From NCBI GenBank assembly GCA_964644695.1, contig CAZXWN010000005.1, positions 62,001-126,000 on the forward strand: a DNA stretch of 64,000 nucleotides, given 5' to 3'. The notes beneath the pieces are model-generated. The model saw nothing but the letters and a program-made list of their open reading frames with translations, was not told the origin of the DNA and searched no databases. The stretch's first letter is position 1. Each line of letters opens with the position of its first letter. Both the position numbers and the translations under genes were made by a program. Below are positions 13,426 through 35,078 of this stretch, piece after piece. The DNA comes from an uncultured bacterium. Its GTDB lineage: Bacteria; UBP4; UBA4092.

Positions 13426-14451
13426 ATGATTACACCTGATTTAAACATAACCGAACGGCGCATCCTGGACCAGATTCAGGCAGGCTTTCCACTTGAATCC
13501 GAACCCTATAAAGTCCTGGGTAATACCTTGGGGCTAAATAGTTCAGAAATGTTGGAACACATCCGTCAGCTGAAACAGACAGGATACCTCCGCCAAATAT
13601 GTGGGATTTTTGATGGAAAAAGATTGGGATATCATTCTGCTCTGATTGCATTGGAGATTAAACCCGAGAAGATTGAAAACGCCGTAAAAATTATTAATGC
13701 CCACCCCGGTGTCAGCCACAATTATGCAAGAAATCATGTTTTCAATCTTTGGTTTACCCTGGCGGTTCCAACTCAACAACAATTACAATCTCACGCGCAG
13801 CGAATCAAAGAGCTCTCCGAATGTAAGAGAATGCTTATTCTCCCGGCAATAACCACATATAAGATTGGGGTCCGATTCTCCATGATAGATTCACAGGAGA
13901 AAAATAATAATTATCAGACTCCGAACGTTGTTATACCAAAAAAAAAGATGATGGCGGAAGATATTCCATTTATTCAGATATTACAGGAAGATTTTCCTGA
14001 AAACGAAAAACCCTACGAAGTCATGGCAAAACAGCTCGGGATTACTGAAGAAAACTTACTCCAGAAAATCCATGATTATCTGAAGTGGGGATATATTCGC
14101 AGGGTGGCTGGTTTATTGCACCACCGGAAAGCCGGTTATACAGCAAACGCCATGGTTGTCTGGCAAATCCCACCCAACGAATGTGACGCTATTGGAAAAA
14201 TCTTTGCTGCACGAAACTTTGTAACACATTGTTATCAACGGCAGGAAGTCCCAGAATTTCCTTACAGTTTATATACTATGGTCCATGCCCAAACCCAGGA
14301 AGAATGTGAAGAACGAATCCAGTGGTTACAACAAGATGCCGCTGTCTATCCCCACCAAACTATTTATAGTACGCAGGAATTTAAGAAACGGCGCGTATTG
14401 TATTATTCCCCAATCCTCACTGACTGGGAAAACCAATATGGAATCAGATAA
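13426..14451 (+). CDS. ahbAB: Siroheme decarboxylase, fused AhbA-AhbB (NirDL-like)
   Basis: Two Lrp/AsnC-like halves with VSHNYAR..NLWFT and ANAMVVW..VTHCYQR..YSLYTMVH. Confidence 0.85.
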   Translation: MITPDLNITERRILDQIQAGFPLESEPYKVLGNTLGLNSSEMLEHIRQLKQTGYLRQICGIFDGKRLGYHSALIALEIKPEKIENAVKIINAHPGVSHNYARNHVFNLWFTLAVPTQQQLQSHAQRIKELSECKRMLILPAITTYKIGVRFSMIDSQEKNNNYQTPNVVIPKKKMMAEDIPFIQILQEDFPENEKPYEVMAKQLGITEENLLQKIHDYLKWGYIRRVAGLLHHRKAGYTANAMVVWQIPPNECDAIGKIFAARNFVTHCYQRQEVPEFPYSLYTMVHAQTQEECEERIQWLQQDAAVYPHQTIYSTQEFKKRRVLYYSPILTDWENQYGIR

Positions 14452-20528: not shown

Positions 20529-21584
20529 ATGGAAGTATCTGAAAGAATAACTGGGTGTCTTCTTGGTGGAGCTGTAGGAGATGCTCTGGGAGCTCCAGTC
20601 GAATTCATGTCACTGTGTGAAATACGATCCCAGTTTGGCAGTGATGGAATTGACCATTATGTTCCAGTTTTCGGTAAGGTCGGGGCGATTACAGACGATA
20701 CCCAAATGACGCTATTCACATTGGAAGGGCTATTACGAACGGATATGCGCCACTATCACAAGGGAATAGCTTCGTATATAGACTGTGTTCGTTTCGCCTA
20801 CATGAGATGGCTTGGAACACAGGGAACTATGGTCAAGAACGATAGGTTTTCTTTTATTTATAATGGTTGGCTGTGGAAACAAAATCTTCTACACTCACGT
20901 CGCGCGCCTGGAAATTCTTGTCTTTCAGCATTGGGATACTATGCATCACAGTTAGAGCAAAATCACTTATCCATAAGTGATCAACCTATCAACAATAGTA
21001 AAGGTTGTGGTGGTATTATGCGCATGGCACCAGTTGGCTTTTTTAATTTTGATTGTTTTAATGTAGGTTGCGAACTGGCAAAGCTGACACACGGGCACCC
21101 ATCAGGATATATTGCATCAGGATTTTTTGCGCAACTGATAGCTGAAATTATTGAAGGCTGCTGTTTAGAAGATGCAATAGAGCTTGCTAAAGATAAAGCC
21201 ATGCACTGGGCAGACAGTCATGAGGTTATGCGGGCAGTAAATATGGCGATTGATTTTGCCACACACAAAGAGGCTACTCCAGAAACAATTAAAAAACTGG
21301 GTGAAGGATGGGTAGCAGAGGAAGCTCTAGCTATTTCGCTTTTCTGCGCACTGAAAGCAAAAAGTTTTGAGCATGGTGTTCTGCTTGCAGTAAACCATGA
21401 TGGCGATAGTGATTCAACAGGTGCAATCACTGGGAATATTCTGGGGGCATTATGGGGTCAGAAAAAAATACCAGAGCATTTTTTATTAGATTTGGAACTC
21501 AGAGATGTTATTGAACAAATGGCGTGGGATGTAGTGAACTTCAGCTATACCGATGAATGGTGGGATAGGTACCCAGGAACATAG
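20529..21584 (+). CDS. ADP-ribosylglycohydrolase family protein (DraG/Tri1-like)
   Basis: GAVGDALG, ITDDTQMT, GCGGIMR, LTHGHP, GDSDSTGAITG. Confidence 0.93.
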   Translation: MEVSERITGCLLGGAVGDALGAPVEFMSLCEIRSQFGSDGIDHYVPVFGKVGAITDDTQMTLFTLEGLLRTDMRHYHKGIASYIDCVRFAYMRWLGTQGTMVKNDRFSFIYNGWLWKQNLLHSRRAPGNSCLSALGYYASQLEQNHLSISDQPINNSKGCGGIMRMAPVGFFNFDCFNVGCELAKLTHGHPSGYIASGFFAQLIAEIIEGCCLEDAIELAKDKAMHWADSHEVMRAVNMAIDFATHKEATPETIKKLGEGWVAEEALAISLFCALKAKSFEHGVLLAVNHDGDSDSTGAITGNILGALWGQKKIPEHFLLDLELRDVIEQMAWDVVNFSYTDEWWDRYPGT

Positions 21585-21766: not shown

Positions 21767-21786
21767 AGTTTTACAACTTAATCACC

Positions 21787-21879
21787 AAACACGAGGGAGC
21801 TCATATTTTTTGGGCTGAGAGTGGGCAATAAGCACCAGACCTCTAGACCTGATCGGGATAATGCCCGCGTAGGAATGTT
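21787..21879 (+). ncRNA. TPP riboswitch
   Basis: GGG..GCTGAGA..ACCTGATCGGGATAATGCCCGCGTAGGA conserved motifs, upstream of thiS. Confidence 0.93.
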
Positions 21880-21883
21880 ATCG

Positions 21884-21920
21884 AAGCACACCTAGGCGTA
21901 GGCGTGCTTTTTTGTTTTTT
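21884..21920 (+). terminator. Riboswitch expression-platform terminator
   Basis: AAGCACACCTA/TAGGCGTGCTT stem plus long T-run between the aptamer and thiS. Confidence 0.75.
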
Positions 21921-22141: not shown

Positions 22142-22933
22142 ATGGCTGATATATTGAAAATCGGAGACAAAGAACTTACAAGTCGTTTGTTTCTGGGTAC
22201 CGGTAAATATGCTAATAACAAGTTAATCAAGGATGTGGTAGTTACTTCTGGAGCCCAAGTGGTAACAGTTGCGGTCAGACGTGTAGATAACTCTTTCCCT
22301 GGAGAAAACATTTTAGAATCAATCCCCAAGGATACAATTCTAATGCCAAATACCTCAGGTGCACGAAATGCCCAAGAAGCGGTTCGTATTGCCAGACTTG
22401 CCAGAGCAGCAGGATGTGGCAACTGGGTCAAAATCGAGGTTATTTCCGATAACCGTTATTTGCTACCAGATAATTACGAAACAATCAAAGCAACAGAAAT
22501 ACTTGCATCGGAAGGTTTCATAGTACTACCTTATATAAGCCCCGATTTGATGGTAGCCCATAGTTTAGTGGAAAATGGTGCAGCTGCGGTAATGCCACTT
22601 GGTGCACCCATCGGAAGTAATCGTGGACTGAGAACCAAGGAACTCATTCAGATCATGATTGATGAAATATCTCTTCCAATCATTGTTGATGCAGGAATTG
22701 GAAGACCCTCTGAGGCAGCTGAGGCAATGGAAATGGGGGCCGCTGCCGTACTTGTGAATACGGCTGTTGCTACAGCATGCGATCCTGTTTCTATGGGGCA
22801 GGCTTTCAGTTTGGCAGTGAAAGCAGGGCGTATTTCTTATTTGTCTAGCCCAAGTGGAATTCAACAGTACGCCAGTGCATCATCACCCCTGATAGGGTTT
22901 CTGTCAGAGAATCCGTGTTGTAAGGAAAATTAA
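22142..22933 (+). CDS. thiG: Thiazole synthase
   Basis: [39 protein letters not shown]. Confidence 0.97.
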
Positions 22934-22934
22934 T

Positions 22935-24029
22935 ATGAGCTTTATGGAGGTATTGGAGCGTTATCAAAATTTTGATGCCAACACTTTTTTTACTAGTGTG
23001 ACAGAAACAGATATCAACCGAGTTCTCTCTCAAAGCAAACTGTCACCTATGGATTATCTTACACTCCTTTCTCCTCTGGCCGAAAAACACCTGGAGGAGA
23101 TGGCACAAAAAGCGCATAGACTCACAGTACAACACTTTGGAAATACGATGCAACTATTTACACCTATGTATGTTTCTAATCACTGTGTAAATCACTGCCG
23201 GTACTGTAGTTTTAATACCAATAACAATCTCCATCGAGAAAAACTCAGTTTAGATAAAGTTGCTGAAGAGGCAGAAGTTATTGCATCAACAGGGCTGAAA
23301 CATATTTTACTTCTAACAGGTGAGTCCCGTTATCACACTCCAATCTCTTACATTCGGAACTGTGTTGATATTCTTAAAAACTATTTTAGTTCCATAGGAA
23401 TTGAAATATACCCACTCAATAAAGATGAATACTGCACATTAGCAGATTCAGGTGTCGATAGTCTAACAATGTTTCAGGAAACATATGATCAAGAGGCATA
23501 TGAGTTTCTTCACCCTCAAGGACCCAAGCGAGATTACAGATATAGACTGGATGCGCCGGAAAGAGGGTGCCAGACAGGTTTTCATAATGTGAATATTGGT
23601 GCTTTGTTAGGTTTGAGCGAATGGAGACGAGAGGCCTTTATCACTGGCCTACATGCTGATTACCTGCAACATAAATACCCTTGTGTTGAAATAGCTATTT
23701 CACCTCCACGAATCAGGCCTCATATTGGTAGTTTCAATACTTTGTTTACTGTAACTGACAAGAATCTCGTACAGTATATTACTGCCTTTAGATTATTTAT
23801 GCCGAGGAGTGGGGTAACACTATCATCCCGTGAGACACCATTTTTACGAGAGAAGATGGTAAAGCTGGGGGTCACCAAAATGTCAGGAGGAGTTTCTACT
23901 TCGGTTGGCGGTCACTCAAACAGGGTAACACCGGGTCAGTTTGAGATTGCTGACGAAAGGTCTGTTGTAGAAATGGCAAAGATGCTGTATTCATCGGGAT
24001 ACCAACCTGTTTATAAAGACTGGCAATAA
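22935..24029 (+). CDS. thiH: 2-iminoacetate synthase (radical SAM)
   Basis: CVNHCRYC motif, [17 protein letters not shown]; thi operon context. Confidence 0.95.
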
Positions 24030-24034
24030 TTTCC

Positions 24035-24676
24035 ATGAATGATTTTGAGAAGTCACTAAGTCGTTATTTTAATCGAGAGCAATTAACTAAAATACGGGCA
24101 GTCAAAATTGGAATTGCTGGCGCAGGAGGATTAGGATCGAATTGTGCCAATGCTCTAGTACGAAGCGGTTTCCGTAATATCAAACTTGTTGATTTCGATA
24201 TTGTTGATTTCAGCAATCTCAATCGCCAATTTTATTTTCTTAAACAAGCAGGAGAGAATAAGGTTAATGCACTTAAAGATAATTTAAAACTCATTAACCC
24301 TTCAGTAAATATAGAGATAACCCAACAAATGCTTAATGCCGATAATATCAGAGATTTTTTCACTGAGTGTGATGTTATTGTTGAAGCCTTTGACAAAGCT
24401 GAATATAAAAAGTTAATTGTCGAAAGCTACATTAATTCAGAAAAACTTTTAGTATCAGCATCAGGAATAGCAGGTTGGGGTGATAGTGACCGAATAAGAG
24501 TGCATCGTATCAAAGACAACTTTTATCTAATCGGAGACCGTATTACAGGGATTGATTCCAACAATCCTCCTCTTGCACCCTGTGTATTAATCGCCGCCGC
24601 TAAACAAGCAGATATAGTTCTGAGTTATGTACTAGGTACGCTTCAGAAGGGTGATCACAATGAAACAGCGGGATAA
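24035..24676 (+). CDS. thiF: ThiS adenylyltransferase
   Basis: GAGGLGSN, DFDIVDFSNLNRQ, VEAFD. Confidence 0.93.
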   Translation: MNDFEKSLSRYFNREQLTKIRAVKIGIAGAGGLGSNCANALVRSGFRNIKLVDFDIVDFSNLNRQFYFLKQAGENKVNALKDNLKLINPSVNIEITQQMLNADNIRDFFTECDVIVEAFDKAEYKKLIVESYINSEKLLVSASGIAGWGDSDRIRVHRIKDNFYLIGDRITGIDSNNPPLAPCVLIAAAKQADIVLSYVLGTLQKGDHNETAG

Positions 24677-25340
24677 TTTAAAAAACTTCCTTTCAACAGA
24701 TCTATATTGCATTACTGCAGATAAATATTCGTTGGGGCGTGGGAACATTGAAACTGCAAAGCAGATGATAAACTGTAACATTAAAGTAATCCAATACCGT
24801 GAAAAAAATAAAGACATGAAAGAGATGTATGAAGAATGTCTCACCATTCGAGAGCTTACCAGGGAACGTGACGTTACCTTTATTATCAATGATTATGTTG
24901 ACTTAGCTATAAGGATTCAAGCAGATGGGGTTCATGTTGGACAAAATGATATGCCCCCGGAGAAAGTCCGTAAGCTTGTTGGGGATAAGATGGTTATCGG
25001 GGTATCCACACATTCTCCTGCACAGGCACATAAGGCTAAAATACTGGAAGGTATCATTGACTATATTGGAGTCGGTCCAATCTTTGCGACTCAAACAAAA
25101 GAGGATGTGTGTGAACCGGTTGAGCTGGAATATCTCAATTATATTGTAAAAAATATTAACATGCCCTTTGTGGCTATTGGTGGTATCAAAAGGAATAACA
25201 TTAAGCTTGTTAGAAATAAAGGCTCACGGATTATTTCTTTAGTAACAGAAATAGTTGGTGCACCTGATATTGCGGATAGAATCAATGAAATCAGAAATAT
25301 ACTATCAAGTAGTCATCCATCCAATGTAAATCCACGTTAA
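24660..25340 (+). CDS. thiE: Thiamine-phosphate synthase
   Basis: IQYREK, FIIND, DGVHVGQND, GVSTH, GPIFATQTK, VAIGGI. Confidence 0.95.
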   Translation: MKQRDNLKNFLSTDLYCITADKYSLGRGNIETAKQMINCNIKVIQYREKNKDMKEMYEECLTIRELTRERDVTFIINDYVDLAIRIQADGVHVGQNDMPPEKVRKLVGDKMVIGVSTHSPAQAHKAKILEGIIDYIGVGPIFATQTKEDVCEPVELEYLNYIVKNINMPFVAIGGIKRNNIKLVRNKGSRIISLVTEIVGAPDIADRINEIRNILSSSHPSNVNPR

Positions 25341-25521
25341 AACTATTCCAAATAAAAACAATATCGTATTCATTATTATATTCCCCTCAGTTAACCTCTC
25401 TGCTGCACTAGCATTAAGACCCACCTTATTTTGTTAAATGAAATATTTTATTCTTACAATTCTTGACTTTTAGCCTATACTCATTTATATTGAATTGTAT
25501 TCATTATTATTGAGGTTCAAT

Positions 25522-26277
25522 ATGGATAACACACCCGTTAAAGTAGTAAAAAAAGCCTTAGATGCACTGGAATACGTAATTGAAGAGTCTCTCAATAAGC
25601 CAGGGGTGACATTAAGTGAGATTGCTGAATATACCGGTGAGCAGGCAACAACGGTACGAAATATCCTGAAAACATTGGAACAATGCGGATATTTGTCACG
25701 TCCAGCAGGCCGTCTATATTCCCCAGGGCCAAAGTGTTCAGGGTTATCGCGGGTTAGTATGTGTAGGGATTTAATCAGTATCGCTGGAGTTTCTTTAAAT
25801 ACACTGGCTCAAGTCACAGGAGAATCAGTGGTTCTGGCAACATTAGTTGGGGGAACACGGCGTGTATTAGTACGAGTCGAAGGTGGAGAGCTCATTCGTG
25901 TTAACTCACAGGTTGCTGAAGATGTTTCTTTCTGGTCTCTTGTCACAAGCAGAGTTTTAACTGCATATATCCCGGCAGATGAAGTGGATCTGGTTATAGG
26001 AGAAAATGGTCTACCGGACTCTTCATGGCCTGGAGCAGAGACACGAAGTAAGCTGGATAAGCGACTTTCTGAAATCCGAACAAATGGTCTTGCGGAAGAT
26101 CATCCAAACTCTGAATCATATTCTCTTTCAATCCCATTATTACAACCAGGTGGAAATATATTAGGTTCAATTGGATTGTATATGCCGTCATTTCGATATA
26201 ACGAAAGTCGAAGAGTGGAGTTAATCACTGCTATGAATCGTACCGCAGCTGAAATAATGAATCAAATAAAAGGGTAA
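25522..26277 (+). CDS. IclR family transcriptional regulator
   Basis: N-terminal HTH (TLSEIA...TVRNILKTLEQCGYL) and C-terminal GAF-like effector domain (L.EIR..G.A..D, SLSIP, GSIGL..P.FR). Confidence 0.9.
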   Translation: MDNTPVKVVKKALDALEYVIEESLNKPGVTLSEIAEYTGEQATTVRNILKTLEQCGYLSRPAGRLYSPGPKCSGLSRVSMCRDLISIAGVSLNTLAQVTGESVVLATLVGGTRRVLVRVEGGELIRVNSQVAEDVSFWSLVTSRVLTAYIPADEVDLVIGENGLPDSSWPGAETRSKLDKRLSEIRTNGLAEDHPNSESYSLSIPLLQPGGNILGSIGLYMPSFRYNESRRVELITAMNRTAAEIMNQIKG

Positions 26278-26322
26278 TTACTCACAATTAATCTGCCCCT
26301 AGTGGCGAAAGGAATTAGTATA

Positions 26323-28731
26323 ATGTCAGATCGTGTACTGACCGAACAGGTAAGAAAATTAGTTTTAGAACAGGGAATGGATCTCGTTGGTTTTGGCCCA
26401 GTAGATCGGTGGAAGAACGCACCCTATCTCTTAAGTCCAAAAGCAATTCTTCCTGAATCAAAAACAGTCATTGTATGTGCCATTCATATTACTGACACAT
26501 GGACGGAAATGGGTGGGGAACCTGAGCCACAAGACCGAAGTGCTGGTGGCTGGATGGACCAAAACTCTCTATTAGACAGAGTTGCTTACCGTACAGTAAG
26601 GTTTTTAACTGATCAAGGATATCAGGCCATTGGTGTCGCTTCTTCAAATATATGGCGTTACCGTGAATTCCCCGGAATCCCCAGTTTGTTTGCCCCAGAC
26701 CTGTCTCATATGCATGCTGCGGCCGCGGCGGGCTTGGCCGAGATTGGCTGGTCAGGTTTGGCTATTACACCAGAATTTGGGAGTCGATGCCGTTTCATAT
26801 CTATTGTTACTGATGCAGATTTAGTACCCACACCCATGTATTCAGGACCACCGTTATGTGACCGTTGCATGGATTGCGTCAAGGCATGTCCTTCATTCGC
26901 CATGAAAAAAGACTTTAATTCTGTCACTCCTCACCGAGTTGAGATTGGTGGAAAAGTTTATGAGTATGCCAATAAAAATATCTGGCGTTGTGCATGGGCC
27001 GAACATTTCAACTTGGATTTAAACTCAGAGAATCTGAAGACATTAAAGCATGTCGGCGAAGCAGAGATTCTCCATGAACTCAAAGTGAAAGGGACTCGGA
27101 ACCATGAGCGGGGAGTGTGTCAGAAAGTATGTGTTCCACCTCACCTCCGTTCTAAAGAACCAAGTTTTGGACGCCCTGATAAAACCATCACGCAAAATCG
27201 TATTAACAAACGGTATCCAGATAATATGCCCACATTACGAAAAATGCGGGATGATATTACTGCTTATGCAACAAAGTTTGGGATTGATGTTACAAGTGTA
27301 GGTCCACTGGACCCAAACACTGAATCGGGAAAACTGGCATTATCTGATGCTCCCGGAATGACCACAGTCATCGGTCTTGCAATGCGAGTCCCTGATGAGA
27401 TAGCCAAAGCTTCTACTACAAAAACCACCATATTAGATACTTACAAATACGGCTCCGGCTTCCATATGTTAGATCCTTATAGATATGGGTATGGTTACAA
27501 AATGCACCATATCCTGCTACGAGTTGCCCGCATGATTGAAGATTATGGATATCATGCGGCATCCTACACTGGCAGTATCCCACCGCACCAAAATGAAGCC
27601 ACTGGATTTGCAGTTATGGCAGGATTAGGACAATGTGATGAAAACGGATATTTCACAATGCCAGAATTCGGACATAATGTATTCATTGGCGCAGTAGTCA
27701 CTAACGCACCTCTTGACCCAACTCCTCAAAACACCGGTGATGTCAAAGAGCATTCCTGTGTAAGAGAATCTTCTCCCCGTAAACTGAGAAGTTATCTTGA
27801 GGGAGTAGCAAAAAACAACCTGGTCAGTTTATTTGGGGTGGCCCCAGTAAACCGATTTGACACTCTGGTAGAGGATTTAAGAGCACAAGTTGATGTCAAA
27901 TTGCTTGGTGAAGCCGTTATTGATACAAATCTTGAATATCATGGCGTGTATAAACCGGAAATAGTGCGCGAAGAAAAGCAAATCCTACATCCGAAAGACT
28001 ACATGCCTGAAGCAAAATCCGTCATCGTACTTGGAATGAACTTCCCGGAAGCAATTCTTAGAAATGCCAATCTTCCGAAATCCCAGCAAATTGGTTGTTA
28101 TGCTTACCATCAATATCAGACCGCTTTTGAATTAAGATTTGCGGCATGTGACTTAGCAGCGTCCCTGGCAAAGCGGGGATATAAAACATTAATCAGTGAG
28201 AACATGCTGGGGATAGGTTCTCAAGTAGATTCTCATCGTGGTTTCCTTCCAGATGCGCGATGCAATGCCCTTGAGGCAGTAGCGGCAGGCCTGGGTCAAC
28301 TTGGAAAAAGTGGTTCATTACTAACAGATGAGTTTGGTCCTCACCAGAGACAGATCGTTATCATTACGGATGCGGAATTGCCTGCAAATGAATTATATCA
28401 GGGAGCATCTATCTGTCAGAATTGTGACACCTGTGTCAGTACCTGCCCGATGAATGCTTTGGGTGGGACAGACATCACGGTACGAATAGATGGACAGCCA
28501 ATCACGATGCCCTATGTTGCACGACATCGCTGTGACTGGTCAAAGAAATATGCACTTTGTGCAGAAGAAGGACCGGCACTCATTGGAAATAAGACAAACA
28601 TTCCAAAACCAGAAGGGCTTGTAAGTATTGAGACTATTGCAAATGCTATTTCTGGAAGAGATCCCATTATGAAGAAGAGACCTTGTATTTTGGAAACATG
28701 CTTACATAAATGCCCTGCAGGTACTCATTAG
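26323..28731 (+). CDS. Multidomain QueG/reductive dehalogenase-like 4Fe-4S protein (three tandem modules)
   Basis: Three copies of the G.D.VG..P..K.VI...G...A..AGL..G.....P.FG....V.T.A.L pattern; CDRCMDCVKACP and CQNCDTCVSTCP ferredoxin motifs. Confidence 0.8.
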   Translation: MSDRVLTEQVRKLVLEQGMDLVGFGPVDRWKNAPYLLSPKAILPESKTVIVCAIHITDTWTEMGGEPEPQDRSAGGWMDQNSLLDRVAYRTVRFLTDQGYQAIGVASSNIWRYREFPGIPSLFAPDLSHMHAAAAAGLAEIGWSGLAITPEFGSRCRFISIVTDADLVPTPMYSGPPLCDRCMDCVKACPSFAMKKDFNSVTPHRVEIGGKVYEYANKNIWRCAWAEHFNLDLNSENLKTLKHVGEAEILHELKVKGTRNHERGVCQKVCVPPHLRSKEPSFGRPDKTITQNRINKRYPDNMPTLRKMRDDITAYATKFGIDVTSVGPLDPNTESGKLALSDAPGMTTVIGLAMRVPDEIAKASTTKTTILDTYKYGSGFHMLDPYRYGYGYKMHHILLRVARMIEDYGYHAASYTGSIPPHQNEATGFAVMAGLGQCDENGYFTMPEFGHNVFIGAVVTNAPLDPTPQNTGDVKEHSCVRESSPRKLRSYLEGVAKNNLVSLFGVAPVNRFDTLVEDLRAQVDVKLLGEAVIDTNLEYHGVYKPEIVREEKQILHPKDYMPEAKSVIVLGMNFPEAILRNANLPKSQQIGCYAYHQYQTAFELRFAACDLAASLAKRGYKTLISENMLGIGSQVDSHRGFLPDARCNALEAVAAGLGQLGKSGSLLTDEFGPHQRQIVIITDAELPANELYQGASICQNCDTCVSTCPMNALGGTDITVRIDGQPITMPYVARHRCDWSKKYALCAEEGPALIGNKTNIPKPEGLVSIETIANAISGRDPIMKKRPCILETCLHKCPAGTH

Positions 28732-28768: not shown

Positions 28769-28812
28769 AAAGTGGTGTGATAACGAAAAATTATCCACCA
28801 CTTTCTTTTTTT
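28769..28812 (+). terminator. Putative terminator
   Basis: AAAGTGGTG...CACCACTTT stem followed by a T-run. Confidence 0.6.
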
Positions 28813-28884: not shown

Positions 28885-30777
28885 ATGACAGAGTGGCTGG
28901 GAAGTATTGTTCTATTAATAAGTCTTTGGATTAGTTTTTATTTGATAGGAAGAGCCTTTCCTGTCACTGATTACCGAGAGTCCACAGGGTGGAGCTCCTT
29001 TATAACTAAGAATGTCTTAATCGGGTTTATTGTGAGTGCCACAGGTCTGACGGGATTAGTTTCTATTTTCGGCTTTAGTCGTATAGTCTGGGTTATTCCT
29101 GTTACAGTTCTAGTCACTTTGGGATTCATCAAAACGATTGGTGATGTATTAAATACCCGTAAAGCCCCAGGGAAATCCCCTCTTATATTATTATTCATAT
29201 CTACTTTATTCTGGATACTCATTATCGGATTCTGGTTATCATCATTACTGGGATTCTACCTTCCAGGAAGCACAGATGCCGCAGGTTGGGGAATGTTCAC
29301 TGTAACACTCTTTAAGGGACACTCCGGCATTGAACAGTTGCCCTATTATCCGGGGTTATATAGTCCCTACCCTCCCGGATTCTTTGTTTTATCAGCATGT
29401 CTCCGCGATTTAACAGGATCAGAAATCCCCCGGGTCATGGCAATACTCGCGACGGGGATGGGATTAATGGTCTTGATGTCGGGATGGGAATTGGGGCATC
29501 GATTAGGGAAACCATGGACAGGATTGTTAGTCAGTGTCCTCCTGGTTCTTGATTCCGGATTATGGAGTACATTTTTGGATTCCGGATACACAGCCATAGG
29601 TGGATTATTGGGACTGTTGGCATTTTTCATTTATTGGGATAAATCAAGAGAGTCAGAGCAATGGAGTGACATCATTCTCTCCGCAGGTGGACTGGCTGTA
29701 GTCTGCCTGATGAGTCCGGATTTACTACAAGCCATCATTTTGGGAATAGCAGGATTTATTATTGCAGGGGTTCCGCTACTGAAATCTCATAAAAAGGATT
29801 GGTTGATTTCATTATTAAAAATCTGCGGACTATCTGTATTGTTGGTCCTTCCGTGGTTAATCCAGGCCATACCCTATTTATTACATCCAGAGGTAGGTCA
29901 GGCAATTGGTCAGTATCAGCAATCATTGATGGATTGGAGACCAGGCTGGCACCAATGGGGCGTGGTTCTTTTTTATCATAGTCCACTGGTTGTCTGTCTG
30001 GCGGTGAGTGGAATCATTATAGCTTTCTGGAAGCGGCGACCCATAGATATCTTTATGGGAGTGTGGCTGATATTGATTATGGATTTAATTGGCCCCCATC
30101 TTTTACCCTCGCTGTTTGAAAAAGTTGGGGTATCTATTAGCAGAAACATCTATTATTTTATGTATGGGTGGAGGGCAACGATTATCCCTCTGGTATGGCT
30201 CTCAGCGGTCGGAATTGGATTTTTTATTGAAACCATATTAGAAAAGAAAAGGGGTCCGTTACTGGGATATATCTCATCTATTATTCTAATCTTTATAACT
30301 CTTTGGATAATCACTTCGGCCCCCGTGGGTGAGAATTTGCGTCCCCCCTTTTATGGACCAAGCACATTGTCCATACCCAAAGCCATAAAGATCCATCTTG
30401 TGAAAATCATAAAGGGCAAGATACGCCCACTGGCAACACATGATGAATATCAGGCCATGCATTGGATCCGGAATAACACTCCAGAGGATTCTTTGATTGT
30501 GAATGAGAATACTCTGGGGAGCCACTGGACACTTCCGATGACAGAACGGAAAACAGTTTATTTCCGGGAACAGCCATTTTGGACGGGAACTAAAAGATAT
30601 CAAGATTGGCAAAAGAGTCTATCTGAGTACCGTAAAAATCCTTCATTATTCAAATCGCAGGAAATTCGACATGCGTACTTGTTAACCAGCACTCCACTGG
30701 GAATAGATACTGCATCAAATTCTATACAGGAAGTATTCAGTTCCGGGGATGCCGGGGTTTACAGGATAAAAGAGTAG
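28885..30777 (+). CDS. Polytopic membrane protein, GT-C glycosyltransferase-like
   Basis: Many TM helices; D-containing first loop (GSTD), YPPGF, and a C-terminal AMHWIRNNTP..S soluble domain. Confidence 0.6.
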   Translation: MTEWLGSIVLLISLWISFYLIGRAFPVTDYRESTGWSSFITKNVLIGFIVSATGLTGLVSIFGFSRIVWVIPVTVLVTLGFIKTIGDVLNTRKAPGKSPLILLFISTLFWILIIGFWLSSLLGFYLPGSTDAAGWGMFTVTLFKGHSGIEQLPYYPGLYSPYPPGFFVLSACLRDLTGSEIPRVMAILATGMGLMVLMSGWELGHRLGKPWTGLLVSVLLVLDSGLWSTFLDSGYTAIGGLLGLLAFFIYWDKSRESEQWSDIILSAGGLAVVCLMSPDLLQAIILGIAGFIIAGVPLLKSHKKDWLISLLKICGLSVLLVLPWLIQAIPYLLHPEVGQAIGQYQQSLMDWRPGWHQWGVVLFYHSPLVVCLAVSGIIIAFWKRRPIDIFMGVWLILIMDLIGPHLLPSLFEKVGVSISRNIYYFMYGWRATIIPLVWLSAVGIGFFIETILEKKRGPLLGYISSIILIFITLWIITSAPVGENLRPPFYGPSTLSIPKAIKIHLVKIIKGKIRPLATHDEYQAMHWIRNNTPEDSLIVNENTLGSHWTLPMTERKTVYFREQPFWTGTKRYQDWQKSLSEYRKNPSLFKSQEIRHAYLLTSTPLGIDTASNSIQEVFSSGDAGVYRIKE

Positions 30778-31792: not shown

Positions 31793-32569
31793 TTAATATT
31801 TATAAGATTGTAAAAACTGTTTTCGGTGCCATGCCAGGAATTTGGCATCGGGGAGAAATCGTTCTGGAAGAGACAGTGGTTTTCCCTCATATTGCAGGAA
31901 ATTAAGATTAATGGTTTCGGTAAATAGTTCCTCTTTGATTCGAGGACTCAGTATTAGGCGATAATTCTCATCAAAACTAATAAGTCCACGGTCGAAGGCG
32001 GCATCATGAAGGGCTGATAAACAAATCCCATTATGAGGATTCAATCTTTCTTTTGGGAATTCATTCCAAGGCAAAATATGACTTGCGCGGAGAAGTTGAG
32101 GGATTGGATTACCGGTAATAGCACATTTATACTCATAATTGGCTAAGGTCATTTTTCTAAAGAATGCTTGTCCCATTCTTGTCTTAACTTGGGAGATTTT
32201 TTCCGTTTCTTCCATTTGTTTTAGTTTTGGAAAATCCGATAATTCTTCAGAAGAATCAACACCCAATTTATTGACCAATGTTTCACTTTCTAATACATAA
32301 TCATTCCAATTATTTTTAAATTCTTCAAAGAATTCTCTATCCGCTTTACTCACTCCCGAAAGACCTTTAATACCCCGCTTTTGCAATTCAGGGTCCAATG
32401 AGGCAAAATTACATAACTTCATGGAAAGACTTGCGGGAGTTCTTCCCAAGGCAGAAGCTACTTTCATGATTTCCGGATTCGTACTACTTAGTTTTCCGAA
32501 AGGTATTTTGCAATAAAGATTGTAGGCAATCAGTAATTCTTCACGCGTCCACCGTTTTCCATTTGTCAT
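31793..32569 (-). CDS. HNH endonuclease (putative restriction endonuclease, COG3440-like)
   Basis: N-terminal WTREEL..YNLYCKIPFG..GRTP..MKL.NF.SLDP domain; CAITG..ASHILPW..NGICL..HDAAFDRG HNH_2 motif. Start uncertain (32569 or 32611). Confidence 0.88.
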   Translation of the reverse strand: MTNGKRWTREELLIAYNLYCKIPFGKLSSTNPEIMKVASALGRTPASLSMKLCNFASLDPELQKRGIKGLSGVSKADREFFEEFKNNWNDYVLESETLVNKLGVDSSEELSDFPKLKQMEETEKISQVKTRMGQAFFRKMTLANYEYKCAITGNPIPQLLRASHILPWNEFPKERLNPHNGICLSALHDAAFDRGLISFDENYRLILSPRIKEELFTETINLNFLQYEGKPLSLPERFLPDAKFLAWHRKQFLQSYKY

Positions 32570-32747
32570 AATGCATTCAATATACTCAGAATCAGTAGAA
32601 ATATCAATCATTCAAAACTCATAGATAGAAAAGATAGAGGGATGGGGGATGTTTAAGTCGTATCCGAGTCGTATCTGATTCGTTTGAGGAAACGGAGTTA
32701 GCTGTTATGTCAAGAGGGGATATAAGGAGGGTGGGAAGAGGAAATAC

Positions 32748-35078
32748 TTATTTACAGCGGAACCAGAAGATAATTGAAAGAATCAAAGTCAGCAGGCTGG
32801 ACCATAATCCCAAGAAGAAGACCCAGGGATGAAAAATCATTTTCAAATTCAGGGGACCTTTCGTAACATGAACGGCCCGAAGGAATCCATCAGCCATCTT
32901 GATTTCAGATTTTTGTCCGTTCAAAGTCACTTTCCATCCGGGATAATACACTTCACTAAACACCAACCATCCAGAACTCGGAATCTCCGTAGATAAGTTA
33001 ATGGATTGAGGTTTCCAGTCCAGAGATTGAATTTGGATGGGCTCTCCCCCCTGATATTCCGAATCACCTACGACAACTTTATCCAGAGGGTTTATATTTC
33101 GAGTGGACAGGCTTGCCCAGGGAGATGTTACAGATGTTTTATTTTTGTCACTGACAAACCATACCCGGTCATGATACTGGGAATCCTGATATATTTTCCG
33201 TGTTCCATCCTCAATCAATTGGAGTGTGGAATCCTCCACCCAGTCATCCGTTGTAATATATTTGACCTGCATCAAAGACCGAAACACGGGATTGGAGAAT
33301 CCCAGTGTTTCCCACGCCTGAGCATAATGTTTCAAGGGGAAGGACTGATACCCCCACACTGACTGTAACCGATGTAAACTCCATTTATTATTGATCATAT
33401 CTCTGGACCCGGTCGGTAAAATTCGGAAGAGTCCCGGGTCAGCCTGAAGCGAATATACTCCCTGCTCCGACCGAACATATTGATAATACGATTTCATATC
33501 CATAGTCTGTAAATAGGGCCGATGGGCTGTCATTAAATCCAACACCAGTAAAACCAGTATTCCCGTACCTGCCCATACCCTACTTTTCCGAAGGGTTCCT
33601 ATTAACCAGAGAACCGCAAAACCAACGAGGATACTACTGCGGAGAATCATCATTCCATAATGGGATTCCAGGTGATATTTCATTGCGGGAATATACCCCA
33701 CGCCCATCAATACGAGAAGAACACCTATTCCAGTCAAGAGGTTTTTCCAATTCAATTTAGCCTGTTGAAGCAGACTCTTCATCCCCCACCCGGCCAGCAT
33801 AGATAATGCCAGAGAGAACAGCAGGAGAATCTCCGCCGGCACTCGAAACATCGCCAGTCCCGGTACGATTTTCAGAATGAAGGGATAGAGAGGATTAAAT
33901 TTTCCCAAAGACAGAAATCCGGAAACAAATAAAACTCCCAGATAAAAATAACGAGATTCTTTCCAGCTCTGGAACATACCCAATAGTGCCAAAAGACATA
34001 CAACAATTCCCATATATTCACTTAATGTCCGAGCACTATCAAATCGTCCGACATAGTTTTTGGAGGCCGCAGAATAAACCAGATTACCGATAAAAGATTC
34101 TTTCGTTTGAAATATAGGGTCTTGTCCACCGGCAGGATGGATATGGTCTCCGTAGGGACTGACCATGAAAGTACTGAGTAATTCTTCCGGCGGATAGGAC
34201 GCCTCGGTTGCCTTCTGATAATCCATTCCTCCGGATCGGGTACACCATCGGGAATATTCATAAAAAGGCAGCCATTGGACAGCAGTCAATCCCACAATGA
34301 TAAGTCCCGCCGCCCCGGCCAGTTTCAACCATTGATAATCTTTTTTCCGGATACCCTTCCATCCGACACCTATCAGATAGACACCTGTTAATAACCATGT
34401 GTAATAGCAGACCTGAAAATGAAGCGTCATTATCTGGAGCGAGAAAAGAATTGCGGATAAAATCACATCCCGGCCCTTCCGAGTCCGCTCCGAACGGAGG
34501 ACAGATGCCATCACCATTGGAATGAATGAGGCGGCGATATACTTCATCGTATGCCCGGGGAATATCAGCGTCACCAAGTTCCCCGCCAGCATAAAACTTA
34601 GTCCGGCAGTCAGACCGGAAAGAAATCCAGTATAGGTGACGGATTGAGATTCATCCCAGTTAATTTCCCGGTAACACCACCAGGCACCCCACCCGGCCAA
34701 CACCAGATGAAGATAATATAGCCAGGTGACCGCTGTTTCCTGCGGCATCACATAAAACAACAGGCTTCCCGGATAAAATAATGGATAAGACAAACTGGCA
34801 AAATGGGGCATTCCCCCCATAAGATAGGGATTCCACAACGGCCATTGCCCCTGCTTAATCAAATCGAGTGCGGTCTGATTCATGGGGATGAACTGCCAGA
34901 GGAAATCTTCACCAAACCAGGTCAAGCCTGTAAACAAAGCCCGCCCATACAGTATCAGACCCACAACCGCAAAAATAACAAAGGCCATCCCGTTGGGATG
35001 ACCTGATAAAAAAACCGGAACCTTCGACTGAGTTGGAGAAGACTCCACTTGAGGAATGTCCCGGTTTTGATTCGGCAT
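32748..35078 (-). CDS. YfhO family membrane protein (GT-C fold)
   Basis: PLWNPYLMGGMP, many TM helices, FSEVYYPGWKV C-terminal motif. Confidence 0.85.
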   Translation of the reverse strand: MPNQNRDIPQVESSPTQSKVPVFLSGHPNGMAFVIFAVVGLILYGRALFTGLTWFGEDFLWQFIPMNQTALDLIKQGQWPLWNPYLMGGMPHFASLSYPLFYPGSLLFYVMPQETAVTWLYYLHLVLAGWGAWWCYREINWDESQSVTYTGFLSGLTAGLSFMLAGNLVTLIFPGHTMKYIAASFIPMVMASVLRSERTRKGRDVILSAILFSLQIMTLHFQVCYYTWLLTGVYLIGVGWKGIRKKDYQWLKLAGAAGLIIVGLTAVQWLPFYEYSRWCTRSGGMDYQKATEASYPPEELLSTFMVSPYGDHIHPAGGQDPIFQTKESFIGNLVYSAASKNYVGRFDSARTLSEYMGIVVCLLALLGMFQSWKESRYFYLGVLFVSGFLSLGKFNPLYPFILKIVPGLAMFRVPAEILLLFSLALSMLAGWGMKSLLQQAKLNWKNLLTGIGVLLVLMGVGYIPAMKYHLESHYGMMILRSSILVGFAVLWLIGTLRKSRVWAGTGILVLLVLDLMTAHRPYLQTMDMKSYYQYVRSEQGVYSLQADPGLFRILPTGSRDMINNKWSLHRLQSVWGYQSFPLKHYAQAWETLGFSNPVFRSLMQVKYITTDDWVEDSTLQLIEDGTRKIYQDSQYHDRVWFVSDKNKTSVTSPWASLSTRNINPLDKVVVGDSEYQGGEPIQIQSLDWKPQSINLSTEIPSSGWLVFSEVYYPGWKVTLNGQKSEIKMADGFLRAVHVTKGPLNLKMIFHPWVFFLGLWSSLLTLILSIIFWFRCK

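Follow-up and report, generated by a model that had tools for sequence, protein, structure and literature searches.

What does an enzyme do that comes with its own transcription regulator and resembles two known families of B12-dependent reductases, yet scores below the curated cut-offs of both? The question is raised by a locus (25522..28731) in a 64-kb stretch of bacterial DNA, hereafter the window, in which a gene for an IclR-family regulator (iclR) precedes an enzyme gene, here called gene T, whose product is related to the reductive dehalogenases (RdhA) and to the epoxyqueuosine reductase QueG. The reading we favor, with a probability of roughly 0.55, is that gene T encodes a soluble, cytoplasmic, inducible class III corrinoid/iron-sulfur (Fe-S) reductase of a small molecule, with the first of its three modules catalytic, that lies outside both RdhA and QueG. 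That the protein binds cobalamin, acts as a reductase and is induced by a small molecule, which together make up the functional core of this reading, we infer from homology. The gene T family is probably a new branch of the class III enzymes.

The site carries two + strand open reading frames (ORFs), 25495..26277 (260 amino acids (aa), from TTG) and 26302..28731 (809 aa, from GTG). Residues of the enzyme are numbered in the 809-aa frame that opens at GTG 26302; the gene most likely starts at ATG 26323 (26323..28731, +), giving 802 aa, because a 100% identical database protein, P0004, has this length. By profile and model comparison the protein consists of three tandem copies of a nitroreductase-like corrinoid-binding fold; by their motifs copies 1 and 3 each appear to keep a two-cluster ferredoxin-like domain, and copy 2 is degenerate and without clusters. 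Module 1 comprises a core of corrinoid-binding-type fold (residues 8–180; 26323..26841, +), delimited by conservation and the module model, and a ferredoxin-like domain (residues 181–300; 26842..27201, +) with C186-x2-C189-x2-C192-x3-C196-P followed by C230 and C273-x3-C277. Module 2 (residues 301–488; 27202..27765, +) is recognized by hhalign and profile search as a degenerate core copy without an Fe-S motif. Module 3 again has a core (residues 489–700; 27766..28401, +), supported by Pfam, profile search and conservation, and a ferredoxin-like domain (residues 701–809; 28402..28728, +) with C705-x2-C708-x2-C711-x3-C715-P, then C744 and C800-x3-C804-P. The translation contains all the motifs listed in the original prediction, which had proposed three QueG/RdhA-like modules: AAAAAGLAEIGWSGLAITPEFG, AVMAGLGQCDENGYFTMPEFG, AVAAGLGQLGKSGSLLTDEFG, CDRCMDCVKACP and CQNCDTCVSTCP, the series IVTDADL, VVTNAPL and IITDAEL, and the cysteine sets RCAW...RGVCQKVC and RCDW...CILETCLHKCP.

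Several lines of comparison support this architecture. Within gene T the repeat exceeds chance by a wide margin: BLASTP matches residues 1–300 to 491–809 at E 7e-19, 1–300 to 301–490 at 3e-8, and 301–490 to 491–809 at 3e-6. Module profiles built from 60 distinct full-length homologues align in hhalign with a probability of 100% for modules 1 and 3 (E 1.7e-42) and 99.0% for both modules 1 and 2 (E 7.1e-18) and modules 2 and 3 (4.4e-18). The best match of all three profiles among PDB sequences is PceA, an RdhA enzyme (PDB 4UQU, 8Q4H), at 1.8e-14 for module 1, 3e-6 for module 2 and 4.8e-14 for module 3; QueG follows at 1.2e-5, 9.7e-4 and 1.3e-8, respectively, and module 3 also finds NpRdhA at 3e-8. 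A segment of the form AGLG...G...TPE.G...R....T.A.L is common to the three modules, PceA and QueG, and is the best-conserved part of the match. Pfam places QueG_DUF1730 on module 3 (residues 563–603, 26.8 bits against a cut-off of 25.1). The AlphaFold2 model of the whole protein, made with 33 homologues, has a mean predicted local distance difference test score (pLDDT) of 85.8 and a predicted template modeling score (pTM) of 0.91. In Foldseek searches of PDB the whole model has 46 matches at E <= 1e-3, and those listed are NpRdhA (8.8e-13 over ~600 columns), PceA and the RDH complex (PceA 4.3e-10), QueG (5.4e-9) and MMACHC (2.3e-3). Module 1 modeled alone (pLDDT 78.3) finds QueG at E 4.4e-10 with a query-normalized TM-score (TMq) of 0.51, PceA at 3.9e-9 (0.50), NpRdhA at 1.3e-7 (0.51) and MMACHC at 2.9e-5; of its 64 matches, all those listed (E 4.4e-10 to 4.3e-5) are class III enzymes or CblC. 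Module 2, which has no clusters, finds its closest analogue in the B12-processing protein MMACHC/CblC (PDB 3SOM, 5UOS), where the corrinoid-binding fold likewise stands without a ferredoxin domain; PDB sequence searches detect no similarity between MMACHC and the gene T protein. With profile and structure comparisons in agreement, the proposal of three modules stands.

Relatives of the protein are numerous, and full-length ones are found in hundreds of metagenome clusters as well as in genome loci. A word-indexed protein search returns 367 of them; among the best 120, which are those listed, 118 clusters cover 96–99% of the query at 766–847 aa, and the remaining two are P0007 (599 aa, 73% cover) and the identical P0004. 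An exhaustive search of 50%-identity representatives finds 1,980 proteins at E <= 1e-3, of which 156 reach E <= 1e-30. In contigs drawn from one genome per species a relative is encoded in 130 of 146 pattern matches, and the 80 loci kept from these hold 77 full-length copies by tblastn. There is only a negligible chance that separate genes were falsely joined into the three-module ORF during assembly or gene calling. Such an artefact might be suspected from the many short database matches and because some Lentisphaerota loci have single-module relatives encoded by two genes (283 aa + 378 aa). However, the 39 short matches lie mostly on contigs < 4 kb and are thus taken to be cut at contig ends, the 283-aa and 378-aa proteins are separate paralogues and not halves of gene T, and the full-length copies come from independent loci. 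The fusion that had been predicted is therefore real. The two-gene paralogues (IclR + 283 aa + 352–378 aa; Lentisphaerota loci L004 (6477-8483, -), L008, L026, L033, L007, L018 and L011) resemble gene T in having the superfamily core and ferredoxin domain and in standing behind an IclR gene, often a few kb from gene T itself; they differ in being separate proteins, each ~29% identical to module 1, with no degenerate middle module. They had been considered as split forms of gene T, a candidacy that was rejected.

A quick IQ-TREE phylogeny of the 60 distinct sequences resolves two deep clades, each with 100% support in the Shimodaira-Hasegawa-like approximate likelihood ratio test (SH-aLRT). Clade 1 (43 rows) is of the PVC (Planctomycetota-Verrucomicrobiota-Chlamydiota) type, labeled mostly Lentisphaerota, Kiritimatiellota, Planctomycetota and Verrucomicrobiota, with a few metagenome-assembled genomes (MAGs) of Bacillota, Spirochaetota and Armatimonadota; the window protein falls within it. 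Clade 2 (17 rows) has 16 members labeled Bacillota, mostly ruminant-gut MAGs, and one labeled 'uncultured bacterium' (L052). The closest genome locus is L001, from an unclassified candidate-phylum MAG (bacterium UBP4_UBA6127), at 77% protein identity. A plasmid collection yields no tblastn match to the protein. Relatives are labeled 'hypothetical protein' in the source databases or, in one source (jgi), 'epoxyqueuosine reductase QueG', and a search of the ESM Atlas returns only clusters named 'hypothetical protein' and 'epoxyqueuosine reductase (fragment)'. Neither the family, nor a three-core RdhA/QueG-type protein, nor a seven-cysteine pattern was found described in the literature, subscription-only papers and supplements being outside the scope of the search; term look-ups in a Kiritimatiellia synteny preprint and a cold-seep RdhA survey likewise gave no description of the family or architecture. 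We regard gene T as representing a separate family, so far uncharacterised, with an architecture of its own inside the class III B12/Fe-S superfamily.

Conservation across the family is markedly uneven. In the 60 distinct full-length sequences, which are 33–100% identical to the window protein and underlie all conservation figures given here, the module 1 core is the most conserved part, with a mean column conservation of 0.75 and 49 positions conserved at >= 97%. The module 1 ferredoxin domain follows at 0.69, then the module 3 core at 0.59 (17 such positions) and the module 3 ferredoxin domain at 0.57, while module 2 reaches 0.43 with four such positions; in a set of 29 sequences module 2 has two invariant columns. 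Module 1 is by far the most constrained and therefore should hold the active site. Its core has invariant residues that include N116, W118, R119, Y120, R121, F130, P132, D133 and S135, and the long invariant stretches of the module are SNIWRYR, FAPDxSH and KNxWRCAWxEHF. The loops modeled with lowest confidence in module 1 (residues 72–74, 79–83 and 132–134) fall on invariant motifs, as would be expected of loops that become ordered around a cofactor or substrate. In module 2, residues 371–389 have pLDDT < 50.

Each ferredoxin domain has exactly seven conserved cysteines, 14 in total, kept in 59–60 of the 60 sequences: C186, C189, C192, C196, C230, C273 and C277 are all invariant in module 1, and in module 3 C711, C715, C744, C800 and C804 occur in every sequence and C705 and C708 in 59. 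No cysteine or ferredoxin motif is seen in module 2 of the same alignment. The original prediction of two ferredoxin domains with a non-canonical second cysteine set, and of none in module 2, is thus borne out. According to a report on QueG (PMC5175355), the ferredoxin-like domain of class III enzymes ligates two [4Fe-4S] clusters through eight cysteines, which in Bacillus subtilis QueG are arranged as C188-X2-C191-X2-C194-X3-C198...C214...C240-X2-C243-X3-C247. The cysteine missing from the gene T domains corresponds to Cys240 of that enzyme, a ligand of the cobalamin-proximal cluster (PMC5175355). In module 1 the canonical cysteine three residues before C273 is missing in 60 of 60 sequences. 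Residues beside the gap vary, though not at random: module 1 combines H268 with V272 in 43 sequences, G268 with C272 in 15 and G with V in two, and E269 is kept in 59 of 60; in module 3, C795 with E798 is found in 39 sequences, T795 with H798 in 14 and other combinations in seven. In modules 1 and 3 alike the His/Cys swaps follow the two clades. From this pattern we infer that the proximal cluster may be held by three cysteines and a fourth, non-canonical ligand that changes from His to Cys between the clades, with the near-invariant Glu as an alternative.

Two further positions may belong to the active site. Profile alignments place the invariant D133 of module 1 within a loop aligned to PceA residues 269–275, just after Asp134 of B. 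subtilis QueG, and its module 3 counterpart, D651, is found in 58 of 60 sequences. According to the QueG structure report, the features common to class III enzymes are the redox chain, a single Tyr situated above the corrin, and the site occupied by Asp130 in QueG and Asn272 in PceA (PMC4646009). This Tyr is Tyr101 in QueG and Tyr246 in PceA, and is common to QueG, PceA and NpRdhA (PMC4646009). Candidates for it in gene T are Y120, invariant in module 1, and Y600, present in 59 of 60 sequences in module 3.

Could gene T nevertheless be a member of one of the two established families? A catabolic, non-respiratory reductive dehalogenase, in the manner of NpRdhA or BhbA with extra modules and induced by its organohalide through IclR or AraC, would account for the fact that the best matches are RdhA enzymes (PceA for the three profiles, NpRdhA for the whole model) and that NCBIfam RDH (TIGR02486) is the best-scoring family, at 87.8 bits in three stretches (41.3 bits for module 1, 34.9 for module 3, no match for module 2). 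Catabolic RdhAs are cytoplasmic and have their own regulator, as does the gene T protein. NpRdhA (PDB 4RAS, 6ZXU and related entries) resembles it in lacking both Tat signal and anchor and in placing a two-cluster ferredoxin domain after a corrinoid-type core; NpRdhA also carries an N-terminal, cofactor-less copy of the core fold, which would be a precedent for module 2 and with which the 600-column Foldseek alignment is consistent. PceA in turn shares the AGLG...TPEFG...T..L segment and the first CX2CX2CX3CP motif. However, identity to NpRdhA is 13–18%, and gene T has three cores, two ferredoxin domains instead of one, seven instead of eight conserved cysteines per domain and no detected domain of NAD(P)H-reductase type. 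Unlike PceA/RdhA it has no PceA N-terminal unit, and its second cysteine motif departs from the canonical C...CX2CX3CP of PceA. The absence of a twin-arginine translocation (Tat) signal and of an RdhB-like anchor gene, both claimed in the original prediction, is upheld: neither the window protein nor any of 33 aligned homologues has a Tat motif among its first 60 residues, the window protein has no hydrophobic or transmembrane segment (maximum 19-residue Kyte-Doolittle mean 1.19), and neither an RdhB-like anchor nor a small conserved partner ORF accompanies gene T in the window or the 80 loci. The RDH score is below the 160.35 cut-off. RdhA paralogues diversify rapidly, whereas module 1 is 45–47% identical even between the two deepest clades (63–78% within the PVC-type clade), which points to one conserved substrate. 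There is usually one full-length copy per locus, the hosts are labeled as Lentisphaerota, Kiritimatiellota, Planctomycetota and gut Bacillota MAGs with no dehalogenation-pathway genes recurring nearby, and the Tyr/Arg or Tyr/Lys proton-donor pair was not located. A dehalogenase is thus quite improbable. An unusual epoxyqueuosine reductase, either a QueG isoenzyme acting on tRNA or an enzyme of free epoxyqueuosine or epoxyqueuine, is very improbable indeed. It would agree with the QueG label that jgi gives to several homologues, with the DUF1730 match on module 3 just above its cut-off, with the QueG structures (PDB 5D08, 5D6S) that head the Foldseek matches of the module 1 model, with the redox-chain layout, and with the invariant Asp in a loop aligned near the QueG catalytic Asp. 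Yet TIGR00276, the NCBIfam QueG family, scores 73.3 bits (42.2 for module 3, 26 for module 1) against a cut-off of 200; matches to QueG chains stop within the first Fe-S motif; and the HEAT-like, C-terminal tRNA-binding domain of QueG, residues 257–385 in B. subtilis (PMC5175355), is without counterpart in gene T, where no HEAT-type Pfam match is found and the ferredoxin domains are followed only by a ~25-aa linker or the C-terminus. At its other end the gene T protein begins level with QueG (native residue 5) and the PceA core (chain residue 142). The D-Y-H motif given for QueG in the structure report (PMC4646009) was not found in the alignment. The protein also differs from QueG in its triplication, and a dedicated IclR/AraC regulator is not expected for a housekeeping tRNA-modification enzyme. 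The predicted substrate is therefore not tRNA, in keeping with the original prediction.

The main rival is of another kind and, though unlikely, to be taken seriously: it is that the fold has been kept and the corrinoid lost, with chemistry taking place at a site-differentiated proximal [4Fe-4S] or [3Fe-4S] cluster or with another cofactor such as flavin, which other nitroreductase-fold proteins bind. Here the lost proximal cysteine, absent from both domains in 60 of 60 sequences, would be the hallmark of a free or unusual iron site, and module 2 demonstrates that the fold can persist without clusters. The preferred reading of a corrinoid/Fe-S reductase has to accommodate several points that weigh against it and that in part favor this alternative. 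One canonical proximal-cluster cysteine is missing from each ferredoxin domain, so that the second motif is only CX3C. The sole alignment through the region of the shared Tyr is weak (1.1 bits) and sets S89 opposite PceA Tyr246. By sequence the protein falls well below both curated cut-offs, and conservation is the only basis for choosing module 1 or module 3 as catalytic. The sole RNA features found by Rfam in the window are a tRNA and a thiamine pyrophosphate (TPP) riboswitch, with no cobalamin riboswitch, and no cobamide gene is among the annotated flanking genes. No sequence motif diagnostic of cobalamin binding exists for class III enzymes, according to the structure report, so that homology of fold is no proof of corrinoid binding (PMC4646009). 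Neighboring genes give little direction: 221 representatives of neighbor families within 4 kb of gene T are mostly housekeeping or without Pfam match, and nine of them (7/118 and 2/103 from two annotation rounds) belong to glycoside hydrolase, esterase or carbohydrate-binding module (CBM) families at E <= 1e-12. Against the loss of the corrinoid stand the AGLG...TPE segment shared with PceA and QueG, the lack of any detected flavin-binding family in Pfam or NCBIfam, and the His or Cys beside the gap in both modules, which is easier to reconcile with a fully ligated cluster than with an open site.

If gene T is a corrinoid/Fe-S reductase, its mechanism might run as follows. Module 1, and possibly module 3 as well, would bind a base-off corrinoid in contact with the proximal Fe-S cluster. 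Electrons would pass from a low-potential donor, ferredoxin or flavodoxin, to the distal cluster, the proximal cluster and then Co(I). The target of attack or reduction by Co(I) would be an electrophilic carbon in a small polar substrate, and the protons may come from the invariant F-A-P-D133-x-S-H136 loop, which is aligned with the loop of the QueG catalytic Asp and PceA Asn272. Module 3 could be a second, more divergent active site or an electron-entry module feeding module 1, and module 2 would serve as scaffold. The IclR protein would bind a palindrome at the -10 box and be released when the substrate or a related metabolite binds. A further and more specific proposal is held only tentatively and is on the whole somewhat unlikely: the protein may found another functional branch of class III B12 enzymes, next to dehalogenases and QueG, in which modules 1 and 3 of one chain form two complete corrinoid/Fe-S units with a vestigial copy between them. 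These units would carry out a regulated two-site or two-step reductive elimination on a conserved and probably glycan-derived small molecule with a leaving group that is neither a halide nor the queuosine epoxide, and the His/Cys-swapping ligand may define a new type of proximal cluster. To name an ester- or ether-type oxygen as the leaving group would be purely speculative.

The regulator is the one recurrent companion of the enzyme. In the window, the ORF open from TTG 25495 likely starts at its codon 10, ATG 25522, giving an iclR gene of 251 aa (25522..26277, +). Both Pfam domains of the IclR family score above cut-off in it, N-terminal HTH_IclR at 36.3 bits (cut-off 22) and the C-terminal effector domain IclR_C at 48.1 bits (cut-off 24), and it reaches no NCBIfam equivalog, the top one being PcaR/PcaU/PobR at 70.8 bits against a cut-off of 284.75. 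Regulators were counted by tblastn within 600 nt upstream of those full-length copies whose contigs extend 900 nt or more in that direction; the 68 such copies comprise 42 with IclR, 14 with AraC and 12 with neither. Removal of duplicates (L061 repeats the contig of L033, and L013 and L067 are near-identical to L012 and L063, respectively) leaves 64 copies, of which 39 have an IclR gene upstream on the same strand, 13 a divergent AraC-type gene and 12 neither within that distance. Four of these 12 have a regulator one gene further off, with a URO-D or GH20-like gene between. The predicted link to IclR thus extends well beyond the window. DNA similarity between the window and L001 is limited to 25481-28723, that is to the promoter, iclR and gene T (69% over 3,267 nt), and clustering of all ORFs in the 80 loci reveals no conserved partner besides the IclR and AraC regulators. 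iclR and gene T are therefore a self-contained regulator-enzyme unit of two genes that is real and widely conserved, although the term 'new system' used in the original prediction overstates it, as nothing else nearby is conserved.

Candidate signals for expression of this unit are found at both ends. Upstream of iclR, a consensus scan detects a promoter-like site, TTGACT-17 nt-TATATT (25463..25491, +; 10/12 matches); the region overall shows no enrichment relative to shuffled sequence. The palindrome TGAATTGTATTCA (25491..25503, +), a candidate IclR operator, overlaps the end of the -10 hexamer. It is the sole TGAAT-N3-ATTCA in the 64-kb window, and at least one match occurs in 27 of 100 shuffles; L001 carries TGAATCATATTCA at the equivalent position. 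The shorter form GAAT-N3-ATTC lies <= 70 nt upstream of iclR in L001, L010, L011, L022, L027 and L028; the background is 0.0047 per 220 nt. The scan has seven positives among 110 rows, which include several partial-hit rows per regulator. A 17-nt direct repeat, ATYGTATTCATTATTAT, at 25363-25379 and 25494-25510 (131 nt apart), brackets the iclR promoter region; its second copy shares bases with the right half of the palindrome proposed as operator, and its 14-nt core is found nowhere else in the window without mismatch. Beyond gene T, a terminator-like hairpin followed by a U-run (28769..28804, +) marks the end of the iclR-T unit. It folds at -15.3 kcal/mol (z -4.63), with none of 200 shuffles as stable, and was missed by a simple terminator scan because of its long loop.

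Hints to the substrate come from genes that adjoin gene T in scattered loci. The 69 same-strand genes within 150 nt include 23 IclR genes, four GH20-like genes (one in each of four loci), eight components of sugar-type ABC transporters and two URO-D genes (in two loci). A CUT1-type ABC transporter adjoins gene T in L052, L057 and L046. The best guess for the substrate suggested by these glycoside hydrolase and transporter links is a glycan-derived small molecule; with only nine of the 221 neighbor representatives of glycan type, the link is weak, a hint and no more. L052 (3753-12059) has two full-length paralogues on one contig, 35% and 54% identical to the window protein, that flank a sugar-type ABC transporter of two BPD_transp_1 permeases and a solute-binding protein, and the same transporter families precede the gene T homologue in L057, a Spirochaetia record. 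In three Clostridia-type loci (L063, L070 and L077) pairs of a glycyl-radical enzyme (PFL-like/Gly_radical, 734–736 aa) and its activase (radical SAM, 273–325 aa) lie a few kb from the gene T homologue, near AraC regulators and GH20-like genes.

In the window itself the unit is flanked by housekeeping genes. Upstream are a TPP riboswitch (21783-21893, 59.8 bits) and thiG-thiH-thiF-thiE (22142-25340), which end 155 nt before the iclR ORF; the same four thi families lie 1.8 kb downstream of the gene T homologue in the distant L071, an Oscillospiraceae MAG. The thiamine operon was considered as a partner and rejected, two of ~77 copies (the window and L071) being roughly what chance would give. 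An ADP-ribosylglycohydrolase-family gene a few kb upstream, in the window (20529-21584) and in the Clostridia MAG L074 (5214-7154), is probably a coincidence. The downstream flank comprises genes for a DUF6541 membrane protein, an HNH nuclease and a YfhO-like protein, then folD, rnpA and yidC. The DUF6541 gene directly follows gene T (28885-30777, +; 630 aa), an arrangement unique to the window, and together with the gene of the likewise polytopic YfhO-like protein (32748-35078, -; 776 aa) it flanks the HNH gene (31793-32611); neither membrane protein is conserved beside gene T homologues elsewhere in the 80 loci. Further away, a 341-aa protein (13426-14451) with two NirDL-like helix-turn-helix and two AsnC-type ligand-binding domains resembles siroheme decarboxylase and suggests an alternative route of haem biosynthesis in the host.

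To our knowledge, reductive dehalogenation and epoxyqueuosine reduction are the only established chemistries of class III B12 enzymes. If gene T binds no corrinoid, the RdhA/QueG scaffold would have been reused for cluster-only chemistry, which would also be informative. The authors of the QueG structure suggest that further uncharacterised families with B12 and [4Fe-4S] clusters may exist, and that these are difficult to spot, as there is no cobalamin motif to identify them (PMC4646009). The gene T family is one such candidate: its homology to both known families is clear, it fails the curated tests for both, and it shows strong conservation across Lentisphaerota, Kiritimatiellota, Planctomycetota, Verrucomicrobiota and ruminant-gut Bacillota. 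Because the enzyme comes with a sensor-regulator of its own, screens for ligands and induction experiments could lead directly to the substrate. Record titles place Victivallis vadensis among the hosts, and since this is a cultured species the question would be experimentally tractable.

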